64,000 bases of DNA from a virus, in IMG/VR virus record IMGVR_UViG_3300046028_008994. The stretch is one strand, 5' to 3'. Shown here one piece after another: positions 34,724 to 42,602 of this stretch; within the stretch, counting starts at the first letter, position 1, and each line of letters starts with the position of its first letter. Under the pieces are notes generated by a model. It was not told where the DNA came from. It made no database searches and saw only the letters and a program-made list of their open reading frames with translations. Position numbers and translations under genes: made by a program.

Positions 34724-35479
34724 ATGAAAACAAATATATATTATCTATGTAGAGAAGATAAAGTTCCATTTTATGTAGGAAAAGCTAATAACTTAAAAAT
34801 TAGAGAAAACCAACATAAATTAAAATTAGGGAAAAACATTATTTTAGAAGCAATAGATGAAATACCAACAAATGAATGGAAATTTTGGGAAAAACATTAT
34901 ATTTCTTTATTTAAAAGTTGGGGTTTTATTTTAGTAAATAAAAATGAAGGTGGTGGAGGAGAATTATATAGATCCGAAGAAACTAAACAAAAATTAAGAA
35001 AACCTAACCCAAAAGCAGGTAGAAGAGGTCCATTAAATCAAGAAATAAAAAATAAAATAAGTAAATCAAAAACAGGAAAACATCATACTGAAGAAACAAA
35101 ATTAAAAATATCAAACTCAAATAAAGGAAAATTGGTTTCACAGGAAACATTAGATAAAAAAAGAAAGGCAATGGTTGGTAAAAAATTTACTGAGGAAACT
35201 AAATTAAAGATGAGTATGTCTTCAAAAGGTAAAACTAAATCTCTACTTCATAAAGAAAAAATAAAAATACATCTTGATAATATTAAAGATAAAATAAGAA
35301 AAGCAAAGAGTAAACCTGTTTTACAATATGATTTAGAAGATAATTTTATTAAAGAATGGAATAGTATGACTGAAGTAAGTAATACTCTAAAAGAAATAAA
35401 AACATCAGGGATAAGTCGTTGTATATGTGGTAATCAAAATTATTATAAAGGATTTATATGGAAAATAAAAATAATTTAA
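34724..35479 (+). CDS. GIY-YIG homing endonuclease with NUMOD3 repeats
   Basis: IYYL...FYVGKA, NKNEGGGG, repeated HTEETKLKIS, PVLQYDL...FIKEW. Confidence 0.85.
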   Translation: MKTNIYYLCREDKVPFYVGKANNLKIRENQHKLKLGKNIILEAIDEIPTNEWKFWEKHYISLFKSWGFILVNKNEGGGGELYRSEETKQKLRKPNPKAGRRGPLNQEIKNKISKSKTGKHHTEETKLKISNSNKGKLVSQETLDKKRKAMVGKKFTEETKLKMSMSSKGKTKSLLHKEKIKIHLDNIKDKIRKAKSKPVLQYDLEDNFIKEWNSMTEVSNTLKEIKTSGISRCICGNQNYYKGFIWKIKII

Positions 35480-37116: not shown

Positions 37117-38343
37117 ATGGAATCAAAACAATTAATCAAAGTATTAGCGTTAGTCCTCGCTATCACGGTGGCTGTAATTATCAATCCGTTCTCATGGAAT
37201 GATGCTACTGAAAGAACAGTAATTACCCAAATGAGTGGTAAACAATTTGTAGAATTTAAACCGGGTGTGTTTTATGCAGGTTTCTTTTCTAAAGAAACAA
37301 CTTACCCAAATCAAATTTCAGTATCACATATGGATACTGCATTTAATGGTGATTATAGTTTAACAGATAACACATGTGAAATAGGAGTAATCAAAGACGT
37401 TAGGTTTAATGATGCAACTACAGCAGTTATTTCAGGTATTACTCAGTATATTTTACCTCCAGGTGAAAAAGAAATGATTGAAATACATAATGCTCATAGA
37501 TCACCAGAATCATTTGTACAACGTAGATTAGCACCTTACACAATTGAATGTTTAAAATCAAGCGCTCAGTTAATGAGTTCTGAAGCCCATTACAGTGGTG
37601 GTAGAGCCCAAATGACACAAGACTATATGGATCAACTTAGAAATGGTTCTTATTTATTAAATATTAGAGAATTAATTTTATATGATTCATTAGAAAAATC
37701 AAATAAAAGAACATATGCTGTACAAATTCAAGTAAGTAAAGGTGGTGATAAATTAAGAAAATTCAGTTCAATTAAAGAATACTCTGTAATTGTAGGTGAT
37801 GCTCAAATAATTGATGTTGACTATGAGGTAAAAGTTGATGAAATGTTATCTAAGAAAATTGATGCCGCTACTAAAGCAAGTATTTCAAAACAAGAATTAA
37901 TGACTGCTCAACAAAAGCAATTAACAGCTGAAGCTCAAGGTAAACAAACATTGGTTGAGATTGAATATAAACAAAAACAAAATCAAACAATTGAGGTAGT
38001 AAAAGCACAAACGTTAGTTGAATTAGCTAAACAGGATTTAATCAAACAAGAGATTGCTAGACAAGCCGCTGAAAAAGAAGCTGCTAAAATTAAAATATTA
38101 GCAGATGCTCAAGCATATGAAAAACAAAGATTACTTCAAGCCGATGGTGCTTTGGAACAAAAGTTAAAAGCATATACAACAGTAATGGGATATTGGTCCA
38201 CAGCGTTTTCAAATCACCAACATCCATTAACACCAACGTTTATGATGGGTAGCGGAAATGGAGGTAATGCAGGAACGAATTTCATGGAATTAATGAACAT
38301 GAAAACAATGAAAGATTTAAATCTAGACTTCAAAACTAAATAA
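37117..38343 (+). CDS. SPFH/band-7 membrane protein
   Basis: N-terminal TM, SPFH core, Ala/Glu/Gln coiled coil (AEAQG, ADAQAY). Confidence 0.8.
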   Translation: MESKQLIKVLALVLAITVAVIINPFSWNDATERTVITQMSGKQFVEFKPGVFYAGFFSKETTYPNQISVSHMDTAFNGDYSLTDNTCEIGVIKDVRFNDATTAVISGITQYILPPGEKEMIEIHNAHRSPESFVQRRLAPYTIECLKSSAQLMSSEAHYSGGRAQMTQDYMDQLRNGSYLLNIRELILYDSLEKSNKRTYAVQIQVSKGGDKLRKFSSIKEYSVIVGDAQIIDVDYEVKVDEMLSKKIDAATKASISKQELMTAQQKQLTAEAQGKQTLVEIEYKQKQNQTIEVVKAQTLVELAKQDLIKQEIARQAAEKEAAKIKILADAQAYEKQRLLQADGALEQKLKAYTTVMGYWSTAFSNHQHPLTPTFMMGSGNGGNAGTNFMELMNMKTMKDLNLDFKTK

Positions 38344-38367: not shown

Positions 38368-38404
38368 AAGGCTTGGTTATCCAGGCCTTTTTTTGTATAT
38401 TTAC
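38368..38404 (+). promoter_or_regulatory. Terminator hairpin overlapping promoter for cassette array/thyA
   Basis: AAGGCTTGG-ttat-CCAGGCCTT, T-run, GTATATTT. Confidence 0.72.
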
Positions 38405-38409
38405 GATAT

Positions 38410-38625
38410 ATGGATAAACAAAGATACACACAATCATTATCTTCAGAAGAATTCGAAGCAGCTTATGTAAAATACGCTTGTAATGAAGTCACTCACAACA
38501 CAATGACTCGAGGTGAATTTGCTAATTTGTTAGAAACAAATAAAGAATTTGCTAAAAGGTTTGTTCCTAATTATTTTGATAATACATTTGATTGGTCTTA
38601 TAATAACGAAACTGAAATAAAATAA
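38410..38625 (+). CDS. small protein distantly similar to the ThyA insertion domain
   Basis: AAYVKY...TRGEFANLLETNKEFAKRF vs ThyA DAYKNY...TQEEFINKIKTDDKF. Confidence 0.5.
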   Translation: MDKQRYTQSLSSEEFEAAYVKYACNEVTHNTMTRGEFANLLETNKEFAKRFVPNYFDNTFDWSYNNETEIK

Positions 38626-38674
38626 TGTTCCAAACAAATCACAATAACATACAACAATAAAACAATAGAAAGTT

Positions 38675-38887
38675 ATGAAAATTAATAGACCAAAAGATGG
38701 TGACTATAGATATAAAACTAAGTTTTTATGGTTCCCTAAAAGATTTGATGGCGGGTGGTATTGGTTAGAAATTGTAACCATTAGACAAGTATATTTTTAT
38801 TATGGACTAATCCCAGGATGGTATAATGTGTGTTTGTCAAACCCAGAATCAGGTCTCCCAATAAGTATTGACCCCATTAAAAAATAG
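38675..38887 (+). CDS. hypothetical cassette protein
   Basis: KFLWFPK...WYWLE; starts in repeat. Confidence 0.6.
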   Translation: MKINRPKDGDYRYKTKFLWFPKRFDGGWYWLEIVTIRQVYFYYGLIPGWYNVCLSNPESGLPISIDPIKK

Positions 38888-38893
38888 AAAGTT

Positions 38894-39247
38894 ATGAATA
38901 AAGAACAACAAGAATTATTGGATGAGGCTTATAAGAATTATTCTAAAAAAATGATGTATCATCCGGTGGAAAATTGGTTAGATGATGGAAATGGTGAAAA
39001 AACTTACCGACAATTATCACAAGAAGAATTCATCAACAAATGTAAAAACGATACAGAGTTCTCTGGAAGGTGGGGATTAAAGATTGAAGAACGAGAATTA
39101 GATATGATGGAAAGATGGAAGATAGCCGACCTAACACCTAATATGGAAGAATTTGATTTTGCTAATTATATGTGCGACAAACACAATGTACCAACCAAAC
39201 TAATCACAATAACATACAACGATAAAAAAATAGAAAGTTATGAATGA
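38894..39247 (+). CDS. ThyA-loop-derived cassette protein 1
   Basis: DEAYKNY, SQEEFINKCKND, WG, REL, NVPT. Confidence 0.75.
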   Translation: MNKEQQELLDEAYKNYSKKMMYHPVENWLDDGNGEKTYRQLSQEEFINKCKNDTEFSGRWGLKIEERELDMMERWKIADLTPNMEEFDFANYMCDKHNVPTKLITITYNDKKIESYE

Positions 39248-39443
39248 AGAAGAAAAATTTGTAGATTGGATTGAAAGTCTAGTTGGTCGGGAAATTGTAG
39301 ATTATAATATTAAACCAAAGTTTGATGATGACGGAAACGTTTTATCCTATGATATTATGGTACAGCCAAAAATGTCATTACAATATTTAGAGATTCCAAT
39401 TACGATATCATCAACAGATAAAACAATAGAAAGTTATGAATAA
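39240..39443 (+). CDS. hypothetical cassette protein
   Basis: Starts and ends in repeats; ends DKTIESYE. Confidence 0.65.
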   Translation: MNEEEKFVDWIESLVGREIVDYNIKPKFDDDGNVLSYDIMVQPKMSLQYLEIPITISSTDKTIESYE

Positions 39444-39930
39444 AGAACAACAAGAATTATTGGATGAGGTTTATAAGAATTGGTGTAAACAATTTGAAGT
39501 TGACCCCAATAATTTTAATGTGGATGAATTAGTTAAAGGACACGGTGACCAGTGTTGGGGTTATCCTATATTAGACCATGTTAAACCAACATCAAAAGAA
39601 TATAAAAGAGGTCAAATAAACGCTTATTTAGAGGGTAAAGCAGATAGACCTTTCTTTTATTTATCAAAAGAAGAATTCATCAACAAATGTAAAACTGATA
39701 TTGTGTTCTCTGAAAAGTGGGGATTAAAGATTGAAGAACGAGAGTTGAGTTTGGAAGAAAGATGTGATGAATATATTAAAATAAATCCACAAGAAACAAA
39801 TGATGGAGTATTGAATTACAAATGGATTGGAGACAATCTATGTACTCATGAAGATTACAATAAATGGAATATCCCAACCAAACTAATCACAATCACATAC
39901 AACGATAAAACAATAGAAAGTTATGAGTAA
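39436..39930 (+). CDS. ThyA-loop-derived cassette protein 2
   Basis: Paralog of 38894; KEEFINKCKTD, RELSLEERC, NIPT. Confidence 0.75.
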   Translation: MNKEQQELLDEVYKNWCKQFEVDPNNFNVDELVKGHGDQCWGYPILDHVKPTSKEYKRGQINAYLEGKADRPFFYLSKEEFINKCKTDIVFSEKWGLKIEERELSLEERCDEYIKINPQETNDGVLNYKWIGDNLCTHEDYNKWNIPTKLITITYNDKTIESYE

Positions 39931-40204
39931 AAGAAAAGAAAAAAAAGACCGAATAAAACAAAGATGGGATGCACTTCAAACCGAGATTGACAATTTATTT
40001 AATTCAATTATGTATGAATCATTTACAGAATGGAAGGGTATTATTGAAATCGAAATCATACAAATCATTAAGAAATATAATGTTGTGGCTTGGTATGGTA
40101 GAGAATTGAAAGTAATTACATCAATACACCCAGTTGATAATGAATACACTTTTGATGTTAGAACAATCAAAGGTAATTGGAGAGTAATGAAAATTATTAA
40201 ATAA
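39923..40204 (+). CDS. hypothetical cassette protein
   Basis: Starts in repeat. Confidence 0.6.
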   Translation: MSKRKEKKDRIKQRWDALQTEIDNLFNSIMYESFTEWKGIIEIEIIQIIKKYNVVAWYGRELKVITSIHPVDNEYTFDVRTIKGNWRVMKIIK

Positions 40205-40223
40205 ATTAAGCTAATAGAAAGTT

Positions 40224-40373
40224 ATGAATGAAATACAATATTTTTTAAAAAAGGCAATAAGTTCTTGTAGAAAAGGTAAATTTTACTACAGACCTTGGAA
40301 ACAATTACTAACTATTATTCTACTACAAATTAAATGTAGGATATTAACAGGAAAAACATTAGACAAACTATGA
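40224..40373 (+). CDS. hypothetical cassette protein (49 aa, not in ORF track)
   Basis: Starts in sixth repeat; stop overlaps thyA start (ATGA). Confidence 0.55.
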   Translation: MNEIQYFLKKAISSCRKGKFYYRPWKQLLTIILLQIKCRILTGKTLDKL

Positions 40374-41539
40374 ACAATCTAGATAAACAATACACAGACC
40401 TACTTCAAGACATTCTTGATAATGGTGTACAAAAAGGAGACCGCACAGGAACTGGAACCATTTCAGTATTCGGTAGACAAATTCGTCATAAAATGAGTGA
40501 TGGTTTTCCATTACTTACAACTAAGAAGATGCCTTTCAAAACAATTGTAACTGAATTGTTATGGTTTTTAAGAGGTGATACAAACATTAAGTTCCTTGTG
40601 AATAATGGTTGTCATATTTGGGATGGTGATGCATATAAAAATTATTTGAATGTGGTTATGTTTGAAAAACCTGACTATCTACACGAAAAACACGGGCATC
40701 TTAATATGAGTGTAAAAAAAGAAGGTGATAACTATCTACCATTTACACAAGAAGAATTTATCAATAAAATTAAAACTGATGATAAATTTAGACATTGGGG
40801 TGAGTTAGGTCCGATTTATGGTAAACAATGGAGGCGTTGGACTAAAAAGAAAATGTGGTTATCAACCGATGGCTCATATGAAAACATTTATGATGAAGCT
40901 GACCAAACGGTTATTGACCAAATAGCTGGATTAATCAACGACCTTAAAACAAATCCAGATTCAAGACGATTGATGGTTAATGCTTGGAATGTAGGTGAAT
41001 TAGATGAAATGGTACTTCCACCTTGTCATTATGGATTTCAACTTTATACAAGAGAGTTGAGTTTTGATGAAAGATGTAAAATACAAATCGATAGATTAGA
41101 TGGGATGTATTCATCAGAAAAAGATTTGTTTATCCATCATTCAATTAATGCGGTAAAACAAATAAAAATGGATAAAAACAATATCCCAACCAGAGCAATC
41201 TCTTTAATGTGGAATCAACGTTCAGTAGATACTGGGTTAGGATTAGGTTTTAATATAGCTAGTTATGGATTGTTATTAGAGATTTTTGCTAAAGAAGTAA
41301 ATATGGTTCCTGATGAGCTTATAGGTAATTTAGGAGATGTACATTTGTATTTGGATCATGTAGAACCTATTAAAGAACAATTAACAAGAGAACCATTCCA
41401 ATTACCTAAACTAAAAATTAAACAACATTCTATTGATGAACCAAGTCCTTTAACAAAACCTCAATATTGGCATCCTGATGATTTTGTAGTTGAAAATTAC
41501 CAATCTCATCCTACTATTAAACTTCCCTTATCAAATTAA
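40370..41539 (+). CDS. thyA: thymidylate synthase with large insertions
   Basis: DRTGTGT, FPLLTTKK, ELLWFL, GPIYGKQWR, DSRR, LPPCH, QRSVD, FNIASY, DVHLY. Confidence 0.97.
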   Translation: MNNLDKQYTDLLQDILDNGVQKGDRTGTGTISVFGRQIRHKMSDGFPLLTTKKMPFKTIVTELLWFLRGDTNIKFLVNNGCHIWDGDAYKNYLNVVMFEKPDYLHEKHGHLNMSVKKEGDNYLPFTQEEFINKIKTDDKFRHWGELGPIYGKQWRRWTKKKMWLSTDGSYENIYDEADQTVIDQIAGLINDLKTNPDSRRLMVNAWNVGELDEMVLPPCHYGFQLYTRELSFDERCKIQIDRLDGMYSSEKDLFIHHSINAVKQIKMDKNNIPTRAISLMWNQRSVDTGLGLGFNIASYGLLLEIFAKEVNMVPDELIGNLGDVHLYLDHVEPIKEQLTREPFQLPKLKIKQHSIDEPSPLTKPQYWHPDDFVVENYQSHPTIKLPLSN

Positions 41540-41592
41540 TGTAGAAAATGTATTTTTCATATATTTATAATCAACGGAATGTTGATAGATTT

Positions 41593-42372
41593 ATGGAAAA
41601 TTATTATTTATATTATCATAAAAACCCACTAACTAAAGAGTTATTTTATATTGGGATAGGAACAAATAAAAGAGCATGGGATTTTACCTCAGGAAGAAAT
41701 CCTCATTATAAAAATTATATTAAAAAACATGGTGAACCTATAGTGGATATAATTAAAGAAAATCTTACTAAAGAAGAAGCATGTTCTATTGAAATGGAAT
41801 ATATAGCTAAATATGGAAGAAAAGGAATAGAACCTAAAGGTATATTACTAAACAAAAGTATTGGAGGAGAGATTATTGCTTTAGGAAATAAATTTACTGA
41901 AGAGCAAAAACAAAAAATAGTTCAAGCTAAAACAGGACAAAAATATAATATACCTGAAGGAAGAGCCCATGGTAGTAAAGGTAAACCTAAACCTGATGGA
42001 TTTATGAGTGATGAAATAAAAGAAAAAATTAGCAAAGGAAATAAAGGAAAAAAACATAGTAAAATTCACAGTAATAAAGGAATACCTATCTCTGAAGATA
42101 CTAAGCAAAAAATAAGTAAGGCTAATTCTAAACCCAAACCAGAAGGTTTTGGAAATACTATTAAACAAAATAGAAACCATAAATTAATAGGAGAAAAAAA
42201 TAGTAAACCTATCATTCAATTAGATACTCAAAATAATATAATTTGTGAATTTAAATCTGTTAAAGAAGCACTTAAATATTTTAAAAAATCAATAAATAAC
42301 TCTTGCATAACAGCTTGCCTAAAAGGAAGACAAAAAACAGCTTTTGAGTATGTTTGGAAATACAAAGAATAA
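41593..42372 (+). CDS. free-standing GIY-YIG homing endonuclease
   Basis: YLYYH...FYIGIG..RA, E...I, LLN; NUMOD3-like repeats; YVWKY tail. Confidence 0.85.
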   Translation: MENYYLYYHKNPLTKELFYIGIGTNKRAWDFTSGRNPHYKNYIKKHGEPIVDIIKENLTKEEACSIEMEYIAKYGRKGIEPKGILLNKSIGGEIIALGNKFTEEQKQKIVQAKTGQKYNIPEGRAHGSKGKPKPDGFMSDEIKEKISKGNKGKKHSKIHSNKGIPISEDTKQKISKANSKPKPEGFGNTIKQNRNHKLIGEKNSKPIIQLDTQNNIICEFKSVKEALKYFKKSINNSCITACLKGRQKTAFEYVWKYKE

Positions 42373-42389
42373 TTCGTATATTAATAACA

Positions 42390-42602
42390 ATGATTAAATT
42401 AAAGTTAATAAATCCCGTAGGTGATATCGTTAAAGATATTGAATTATCAGAATGGACAGATATTGAAAGTTTTAAATCAAGTCATAGATTTATATTAGAG
42501 TCTAGCGATGGTTCAATATTCAATTACTCAGAAAAAGAATGGATGGAATTACCTCCTGATTATCAATCACACCCAACAATTAAAGCACCTTTATCTAATT
42601 AA
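42390..42602 (+). CDS. hypothetical protein ending in a copy of the ThyA C-terminus
   Basis: Ends YQSHPTIKAPLSN vs ThyA YQSHPTIKLPLSN. Confidence 0.65.
   Translation: MIKLKLINPVGDIVKDIELSEWTDIESFKSSHRFILESSDGSIFNYSEKEWMELPPDYQSHPTIKAPLSN

Follow-up and report, generated by a model that had tools for sequence, protein, structure and literature searches.

The region upstream of thyA in a large uncultured phage is probably a hyperplastic array of accessory genes, in which an adapter of ~25 nt would couple the translation of adjacent genes and also serve homologous recombination. Arrays of this kind occur in a family of uncultured large phages, whose nearest named kin are the Flavobacterium phage genus Immutovirus. 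The genome of the array phage is complete at 171,684 bp, and the window analyzed here, a stretch of 64,000 nucleotides, is part of it. All genes of the array lie on the + strand, with overlaps or with gaps of at most 49 nt. The sequence-only reading had placed a promoter before the array at 38368; the site is actually a G+C-rich terminator-like hairpin followed by a T run, which closes an upstream gene of 408 aa, and the array starts 3′ of it. At the other end the array is closed by its anchor gene, thyA, as had been claimed. The parts of the locus are as follows.

38368..38389, + strand: terminator-like hairpin (9-bp stem with 5 GC pairs, then a T run)
38410..38625, + strand: ORF0, 71 aa, family F37 (5 members)
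38628..38678, + strand: 3′-end remnant of a lost ThyA-derived (F1) gene, with junction copy 1 (38664-38678)
38675..38887, + strand: cassette 1, 70 aa, family F32 (phrog_11031, function unknown)
38883..38897, + strand: junction copy 2, exact motif match
38894..39247, + strand: cassette 2, 117 aa, F1 family, ends in IESYE
39229..39243, + strand: junction copy 3, exact motif match
39240..39443, + strand: cassette 3, 67 aa, family F92, ends in IESYE
39425..39439, + strand: junction copy 4, exact motif match
39436..39930, + strand: cassette 4, 164 aa, F1 family (E 2e-53), ends in IESYE
39912..39926, + strand: junction copy 5, exact motif match
39923..40204, + strand: cassette 5, 93 aa, function unknown, 56 metagenome homologue clusters
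40213..40227, + strand: junction copy 6, exact motif match in a true intergenic spacer
40224..40373, + strand: cassette 6, 49 aa, overlaps the thyA start by ATGA
40370..41539, + strand: thyA, 389 aa (Pfam Thymidylat_synt PF00303, E 1e-93)
41548..42372, + strand: free-standing homing-endonuclease-like gene with NUMOD3/NUMOD1 motifs
42390..42602, + strand: small ORF with a second ThyA C-terminus at its end (..YQSHPTIKAPLSN)

The 15-mer AATAGAAAGTTATGA is the core of a ~25-nt stop/start junction, AAAM-AATAGAAAGTTATGA-RTAAAGAA. A search of the whole genome recovered the six exact + strand copies already noticed in the sequence (38664, 38883, 39229, 39425, 39912 and 40213), and the ATG of every copy opens an ORF (70, 117, 67, 164, 93 and 49 aa). 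IESYE is indeed the C-terminus of three of these, ORFs 38894-39247, 39240-39443 and 39436-39930, and cassette 1 ends at a TAG within junction copy 2. The sequence-only reading had also described an orphan cassette end before cassette 1 as the scar of a lost cassette, and it proved to be a true remnant of a lost gene body: the segment is non-coding, bears a 4-nt deletion relative to intact copies and (at ~38628-38678) shows 89% identity with the 3′ end of ORF 38894-39247, and in the relative G004 an intact 142-aa gene ends at the equivalent site. Similar F1 3′-end remnants without a gene body are present in several contigs. Cassette 3 is a 5′-shortened form of a 94-aa gene of G004, with the junction fused straight to the new start. 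ORF0 weakly resembles the ThyA-derived family at the EEFINKCKTD..EF motif (25 residues; hhalign probability 70%, E 4e-5). For the cassettes other than F1 no function was found in Pfam or PHROG, the only PHROG matches being phrog_11031 and phrog_11908, both of unknown function, and cassette 6 has close homologues only (82-100% identity). The dN/dS values of the cassette families (0.09-0.35) indicate that the cassettes are real genes, and the 15-mer is exact even though dS is 0.2-1.6.

No further copy of AATAGAAAGTTATGA at up to one mismatch was found in the whole 171,684-bp genome, and all 11-mers of the motif are unique to the array. Among gene starts, AATAGAAAGTT (at most one mismatch) occurs at 196 of 254 (77%) within arrays versus 0 of 922 outside, and the distribution of motif matches is bimodal between the two. 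Genome-wide, starts lie in an A-rich, G-poor context (G at 11% of starts at −3 and 6% at −7), unlike the motif, which has G at both positions. Because the 15-mer is confined to one locus, the starts off the array lack the motif and the start context differs, the junction is a discrete element and not the general start signal of the phage. Junction copies were counted in 81 related viral loci, with 1-10 copies per array, mostly just upstream of a ThyA-family gene, and relatives carry 2-9 copies at a single locus each; these relatives were found by means of the motif, so that its conservation among them is partly by construction. The 23-mer is present in 73 viral contigs versus 1 of 185,579 prokaryote genomes. 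No cultured phage with the junction was found in 50,697 phage records, and Immutovirus lacks both the junction and F1 upstream of thyA.

The junction provides a stop codon in each of the three frames, no more than 9 nt from an ATG, so the upstream gene always terminates there. Upstream genes stop in the IESYE frame at 126 junctions, at the internal TAG at 46 and at the TGA of ATGA at 11. There is no Shine-Dalgarno sequence (no GGAG-type core) in the junction, and its mean MFE is −3.2 versus −5.6 kcal/mol at other starts (P = 5e-18). No hairpin was found at the six junctions, where 75-nt windows (0 to −4 kcal/mol) were no more stable than shuffled sequence. A sigma-70 scan detected no promoter-like site at the junctions, and it mapped no common promoter for the array, the sigma-70 model not being applicable to promoters of the Bacteroidota type. 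From these features we infer coupled translation at the junction: the adapter would end whatever gene precedes it, in any frame, and the next gene would start by coupling.

The exact conservation of the junction could instead reflect the binding of a factor. The junction would then be mainly an operator, at which a phage or host protein or RNA binds AATAGAAAGTTATGA on the mRNA or DNA and co-regulates the block, with shuffling as a by-product; such an element has its models in the RegA sites of T4 and in the start-associated sequences of Cluster K mycobacteriophages. Both the exactness of the core between diverged gene bodies and the atypical G at −3 and −7 would fit an operator, as would the restriction of the motif to one functional neighborhood and its presence at the start of thyA itself in relatives (it opens 6 of 26 ThyA genes and, in the ThyA-like family F5, which lacks the inserts, 7 of 13). 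However, the genome encodes no RegA-family protein (PF01818) and no candidate binding protein was found, the protein of the commonest cassette is acidic (median pI 4.95) and hence an unlikely nucleic-acid binder, and an operator alone does not explain why identity comes in cassette-sized islands and why breakpoints cluster, as described below. We consider this alternative unlikely.

It is evident from the comparison of relatives that cassette number and order vary. Neither of the two outcomes that the sequence-only reading had named as refuting, a 15-mer common at gene starts genome-wide and a cassette content fixed among relatives, was therefore observed. Phages whose backbones share 66-77% identity, and whose thyA genes share 67-86%, have single cassettes in common at 94-99% identity. 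The segment 38630-38905 shows 98.9% identity with G004, and 39244-39481, which begins within cassette 3, shows 97.1% identity with the same relative, whereas 38653-38908 is 94% identical to another relative, G001. Among the internal ends of segments of at least 93% identity, 163 of 308 (53%) fall between −55 and +60 of a junction, versus 23% expected. A metagenome scan for near-identical population variants yielded only six loci. These results support the view that the locus is a site of gain, loss and reordering of ready-to-translate cassettes, with the repeat marking the breakpoints, as far as comparisons of sequence can indicate. Moreover, F1 copies have a median identity of 43.5% within a locus versus 74.6% with the best match in another contig, and only 3 of 110 have their best match in their own locus. 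Recent local tandem duplication was thus rejected, the copies in one array being old, diverged paralogues, and the cassettes are drawn from a shared pool rather than from local duplication.

The same data bear on whether the repeat is a passive relic, that is, a functionless sequence left where tandem copies of a ThyA-fragment gene meet, at the 3′ end and 5′ start that they have in common. The motif does encode the IESYE tail of F1, the MNKE that follows is the F1 head, and F1 genes precede about half of the junctions. Yet the motif is just as exact between two non-F1 genes, in non-coding spacers and in other reading frames, and with paralogues of the same array only ~43% identical the duplication is old while the 15-mer has not decayed. 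A relic of this kind is very unlikely.

We consider homologous, rather than site-specific, recombination to be the inferred agent of the exchange. Since many phages have every cassette bounded by this one sequence, the adapter could act as a portable homology patch, and recombination between patches, catalyzed by a RecA/UvsX-like protein of the phage or by that of the host, would delete, insert, reorder or exchange whole genes with their expression signals intact, either within one genome or between co-infecting phages. The array phage does encode a RecA-family (RecA/UvsX-like) gene. A patch of 15-25 nt is short for RecA-type exchange; with the conserved 3′ end of F1 and the MNKEQQELL start included, the shared stretch reaches ~55-75 nt at many junctions, so the F1 ends rather than the 15-mer may carry most of the crossovers. 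Furthermore, motif-free contigs also carry cassette 5 (39923-40210), at 96.5% identity, which indicates that exchange of cassettes at their boundaries is not strictly motif-dependent.

The sequence-only reading had suggested an integron-like site of expansion and contraction, of which the gain, loss and reordering of cassettes at the repeat has been borne out but the integron mechanism has not. In such a site-specific system a dedicated recombinase would move circular cassettes in and out at an attC-like repeat, and the cassettes here are indeed one-directional, tightly packed and furnished with one repeat apiece, and their content differs among relatives. However, the absence of an integrase noted for the window extends to the complete 171.7-kb genome, in which neither a tyrosine (PF00589) nor a serine (PF00239) recombinase was found. 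The asymmetric repeat neither contains an inverted repeat nor forms a hairpin, and the breakpoints scatter over ~100 nt around the junction instead of falling at a single phosphodiester bond. This reading is largely refuted already and is extremely improbable; with no such recombinase and no attC-like hairpin, "integron-like" is valid as an analogy only.

The commonest cassette, F1, is a stand-alone protein built from the two insertion segments of ThyA. The ThyA of the array phage carries two lineage-specific insertions, and cassette 2 joins ThyA segments 87-144 and 220-288 and lacks the catalytic core. An AlphaFold2 model of cassette 2 is confident (pLDDT 86.6), and a PDB search with it gave no significant match. 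The 3′ end of F1 together with the junction aligns with the stretch of thyA that encodes NQRSVDTGLG, which would correspond to the homing site of T4 td. Extra conservation of synonymous sites at the F1 3′ end (~0.80 versus 0.73 in mid-gene) is too slight to serve as evidence.

These relationships raise a conceivable but doubtful further reading, in which the array and thyA form one system, with the array as a donor library from which gene conversion remodels the surface of this essential enzyme. As stand-alone copies of the two surface insertions of ThyA, the F1 cassettes would swap insertion segments with functional thyA genes; residues 11-96 of cassette 4, which share 85% identity with residues 87-172 of the ThyA of another phage and carry the insertion found there, are an example. 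The junction itself would have arisen from a copy of thyA truncated in the NQRSVDTGLG stretch, perhaps after a break by an endonuclease.

Breaks could also be the driving force of the exchange. I-TevI-like endonucleases would cut thyA or thyA-derived cassette ends in co-infecting phages and gene conversion would drag cassettes along, so that the junctions would be mere points where homology resumes. In 23 of 46 loci, that of the array phage among them, a gene of the GIY-YIG/NUMOD/I-TevI type is found close to the array; in the array phage the product of 41548..42372 clusters with proteins of relatives that have GIY-YIG and I-TevI DNA-binding domains; the second copy of the ThyA C-terminus 3′ of this gene and the alignment of the F1 end with the NQRSVDTGLG stretch point in the same direction. 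However, relatives with large arrays, such as G001 and G004, have no endonuclease nearby, the CAACG cleavage-type motif lies upstream of only 61 of 96 F1-type junctions and 12 of 111 others, and CAACG also persists in two junction flanks of the array phage, which itself encodes the endonuclease. We find it quite unlikely that breaks account for the locus. CAACG (I-TevI-type) was also considered as a conserved part of the junction flank, and was found to be unsupported (64% of F1-type versus 11% of other flanks).

If the adapter works as proposed for the array, it points to a simple and general way for phages to hold a plug-and-play shelf of small genes, which probably serve host takeover or counter-defence. 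Phage genomes are mosaic, but movement of single accessory genes with their expression signals kept has been documented in very few systems, with promoter-early stem-loops (PeSLs) of T4-type phages as the main case; the 25-nt adapter, present in at least 81 loci, would achieve the equivalent through translation, and would do so in phages whose starts lack a Shine-Dalgarno sequence. The junction also offers a handle for spotting such shelves in metagenomes and a natural connector sequence to try in expression work in Bacteroidota. The ThyA-derived mini-proteins, which tie the array to thyA, are a second question raised by the locus.

In integrons, attC sites are imperfect inverted repeats of ~57-141 bp that act as single-strand hairpins, with the tyrosine recombinase IntI encoded adjacently. 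The array resembles them in its one-directional, repeat-bounded cassettes whose number and order vary among relatives; those of integrons are promoterless and lie downstream of a common promoter. It differs in that attI, attC hairpins and recombinases of the tyrosine or serine type, IntI included, are all absent, and in an exchange that appears to be homology-based. The start-associated sequences (SAS) of Cluster K mycobacteriophages are 13 bp long with an AGGAG Shine-Dalgarno core, lie 3-7 bp 5′ of the start and are spread over half of the genome, with no role in cassette exchange described (Pope et al. 2011, PMC3203893). Like the junction, SAS are short asymmetric repeats found in one phage group only, always in one orientation and directly at the starts of unrelated non-structural genes, with the upstream stop sometimes within the repeat and a suspected role in translation initiation. 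The junction, in contrast, includes the ATG, lacks a Shine-Dalgarno sequence and has its copies in one contiguous array.

Among published systems, the closest is the shuffling mediated by PeSLs in T4-type phages (Arbiol et al. 2010, PMC2839356; Comeau et al. 2014, PMC4122927). PeSLs are intergenic elements that combine a sigma-70 early promoter, a stem-loop terminator and a Shine-Dalgarno sequence at ~50 sites per genome, and their mini-circles have been demonstrated (PMC2839356, PMC4122927). Unlike these scattered elements, the junction is confined to one locus beside thyA, has neither promoter nor stem-loop, overlaps coding sequence and acts via stop and start codons. In both systems, a short conserved expression repeat lies between small ORFan or accessory genes in a hyperplastic variable region, the breakpoints of indels and replacements between related phages fall in the repeat, and homologous recombination between repeats is the proposed agent.

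The 15-mer AATAGAAAGTTATGA is present in six exact copies, all on the + strand (38664, 38883, 39229, 39425, 39912 and 40213), as the sequence-only reading had reported. That reading also had the ATGs of the repeats starting six consecutive small genes, three of them ending in IESYE, with thyA closing the array, and the ORFs agree: each repeat ATG opens one, IESYE is the C-terminal end of three of the six, and thyA comes after the array.

38675-38887, +, cassette 1, 70 aa
38894-39247, +, cassette 2, 117 aa
39240-39443, +, cassette 3, 67 aa
39436-39930, +, cassette 4, 164 aa
39923-40204, +, cassette 5, 93 aa
40224-40373, +, cassette 6, 49 aa
40370-41539, +, thyA
41548-42372, endonuclease-like gene

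The window is a portion of a complete viral genome with terminal repeats (171,684 bp, 29% G+C). Throughout this genome, no copy of the 15-mer with ≤1 mismatch lies beyond the array, and all 11-mers of the motif are found solely there; from base composition, ~0.002 exact 15-mers are expected by chance per 64 kb. The 15-mer is thus not common at gene starts genome-wide. Sequences preceding the ATG of the genome's 188 long ORFs are A-rich and G-depleted (G 11% at -3, 6% at -7) and show no Shine-Dalgarno motif, a pattern usual for Bacteroidota and their phages. Unlike this context, the motif has G at both -3 and -7; it is not the general start signal. Beyond the array, a few genes start within a weaker context, AAAGTTATG or AGGTTATG, genome-wide in this phage and at 2361-2393 and 2705-2737 of the Immutovirus locus L193, where 3 of 12 starts near thyA carry it; this genome also has five extra copies of AAAGTTATGA, all on the + strand. 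The weaker context may be a simpler start-site flavour from which the repeat-bearing junction derives.

The 15-mer is clustered in many contigs in a scan of IMG/VR, and the 23-mer AATAGAAAGTTATGARTAAAGAA is found in 73 viral contigs but in only 1 of 185,579 prokaryote genomes, the match lying on a 12-kb contig from a Bacteroidales MAG. Searched over their whole records, relatives have exact copies at one locus only and few one-mismatch copies elsewhere; a complete 160.9-kb relative genome has five exact copies and one near copy at its locus, and one relative fragment has eight exact and one near. We analysed 81 loci with 243 junctions. At these loci, 196 of 254 gene starts inside arrays differ by ≤1 nt from the 11 nt of the motif ahead of its ATG, compared with 0 of 922 outside; the distribution is bimodal, and the junction is therefore a discrete element. 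After upstream genes other than those of the ThyA-derived F1 type, the conserved stretch is about AAAM-15mer-RTAAAGAA; conservation of the motif among relatives is partly by construction, as they were retrieved via it. Sequence past the array is long enough at 46 loci: in 29 of them the start of a ThyA-family gene is ≤3 kb past the last junction (≤300 nt in 19 of these), and in 23 of the 46 an I-TevI-like GIY-YIG gene lies close to the array. In relatives, 6/26 ThyA genes and 7/13 genes of the insert-less ThyA-like family F5 carry the motif at their own start. The closest named relative by thyA DNA (70% identity) is the Flavobacterium phage genus Immutovirus, which lacks both the junction and the ThyA-derived genes. 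We found no description of this junction in the published literature.

The motif offers stops in all three frames: TAG in the ATG frame, TGA overlapping the ATG, and TAA/TGA right after it in the third. At the junctions of the 81 loci, upstream genes end in the IESYE frame (126), at TAG (46) or at TGA (11). Of the six copies in the window, three encode an IESYE tail, one provides the TAG stop and two fall outside coding sequence; all are exact. Otherwise unrelated proteins have in common the IESYE tail and the MNKE or MSKE head that the junction encodes. The junction is also unusually unstructured: the mean RNA folding energy of 75-nt stretches is -3.2 kcal/mol at junctions, against -5.6 at G+C-matched starts of other genes (p = 5e-18) and -9.7 within genes.

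Cassette number and order vary among arrays, which excludes a fixed cassette content among relatives. Backbone identity to relatives is 66-77%, and that of thyA 67-86%. Relative G004 matches 38630-38905 at 98.9% identity, a stretch that runs from an F1 remnant through cassette 1 and the junction to 8 nt into the following gene, and 39244-39481 at 97.1%; relative G001 matches 38653-38908 at 94%. The genes adjoining these stretches are different cassettes. Of the 308 internal ends of segments with ≥93% identity at all loci, 163 fall within -55 to +60 of a junction, versus 23% for random positions; left ends concentrate shortly before the motif, and right ends 15-30 nt past its start. G004 has an intact F1 gene whose final ~50 nt correspond to the orphan, partly deleted cassette end noticed earlier (38628-38678), and similar F1-type remnants are seen in further contigs. 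Cassette 3 is a 94-aa gene shortened at its 5' end, its new start joined directly to the junction. Moreover, F1 copies that share an array are anciently diverged paralogues (43.5% identical) and are closest to copies in other phages (74.6%); for only 3 of 110 does the best match come from the same locus. This F1 pattern rules out recent local duplication as the source and indicates that arrays are built from a shared pool. Cassette 5 (bounds 39923 and 40210) occurs at 96.5% identity in motif-free contigs whose thyA is 71.5% identical, so exchange at gene boundaries is not strictly motif-dependent.

The cassettes are real genes: dN/dS, computed without junction-encoded codons, is 0.09-0.35 for ten cassette families and 0.24 for ThyA (dS 0.2-1.6), and cassette 5 has 56 metagenome homologue clusters. 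Most have no Pfam/PHROG function. The dominant family, F1 (137 members, including cassettes 2 and 4), consists of ThyA residues ~87-144 and 220-288, two lineage-specific insertions with flanking strands; the catalytic core is absent. Its predicted model is confident (pLDDT 86.6) and has no PDB match. Residues 11-96 of cassette 4 match the first insertion of another phage's ThyA (L023:2-1168:-) at 85% amino-acid identity (E 2e-53), and an F1 gene of G004 matches the second insertion of this phage's thyA (41052-41200) at 82.5% DNA identity; F1 genes and thyA therefore swap segments across phages. A ~68-aa protein (MENTKFKIGDKAYKPKGYKFPC..) is encoded on its own downstream of thyA in L122 (G001), whereas in L038:7570-8148:+ and L077:3817-4407:+ it extends an F1 cassette at the N-terminus, giving domain fusions of 192-196 aa that end in IESYE. 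Arrays also stand ahead of a 276-aa insertion-free Thymidylat_synt-family gene (F5; Pfam E 7e-61) in L124 (G005), L125 (G002) and 11 other loci, and hold several insert-derived F1 cassettes; F1 thus persists without an insert-bearing ThyA alongside.

Aligned as DNA, the homology with thyA goes on across the F1 3' end and into the junction, covering the NQRSVDTGLG-encoding stretch with a gap of 4 nt, so the junction may descend from a truncated thyA copy. Past thyA, small ORFs end in a copy of the ThyA C-terminus (..IKAPLSN, ..PPLSN, ..KEPLSN; window 41548-42602, L123 (G004) and L186), which in the window sits after the endonuclease gene; in cultured Immutovirus a duplicated ThyA 3' end (..IKAPLSN, off the annotated ORF frame) lies downstream of thyA (L193 5026-5055). 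We read these copies as a second junction type. On the upstream side, a 102-aa ORF (35171-35479), 3 kb from the array, groups with the GIY-YIG/NUMOD endonuclease family F2; it probably represents either a gene fragment or a second small gene related to homing endonucleases. A 408-aa protein (37117-38343) matches only phrog_11908, whose function is unannotated, and its gene is at that position in no relative examined, so the upstream flank is also variable. A promoter had been placed at 38368; 38368-38389 is instead a terminator-like hairpin with a T run.

The proposal of an integron-like expansion/contraction site is borne out for cassette exchange at the repeat and not for its mechanism: the complete genome has no tyrosine/serine recombinase and the junction no hairpin, which makes an integron-type mechanism very unlikely. 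The genome encodes a RecA/UvsX-like gene, and junction homology often reaches 55-75 nt via conserved F1 ends. We favor a reading in which the junction is probably a translation-coupling start region under selection that doubles as a homology patch for recombination: selection would keep it as the start region for coupled translation, and the resulting identity at every boundary would let it serve as a patch within and between genomes. We infer both that translation is coupled and which machinery performs the recombination; a junction-binding factor and breaks induced by the neighbouring endonuclease are possible contributors.

The closest published system is the modular shuffling mediated by PeSLs in T4-type phages, which shares this logic; PeSLs are promoter-terminator units (PMC2839356, PMC4122927), whereas the array here uses a stop/start adapter. 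Start-associated sequences of Cluster K mycobacteriophages are alike in position, but have a Shine-Dalgarno core and are dispersed, with no link to shuffling described (PMC3203893).
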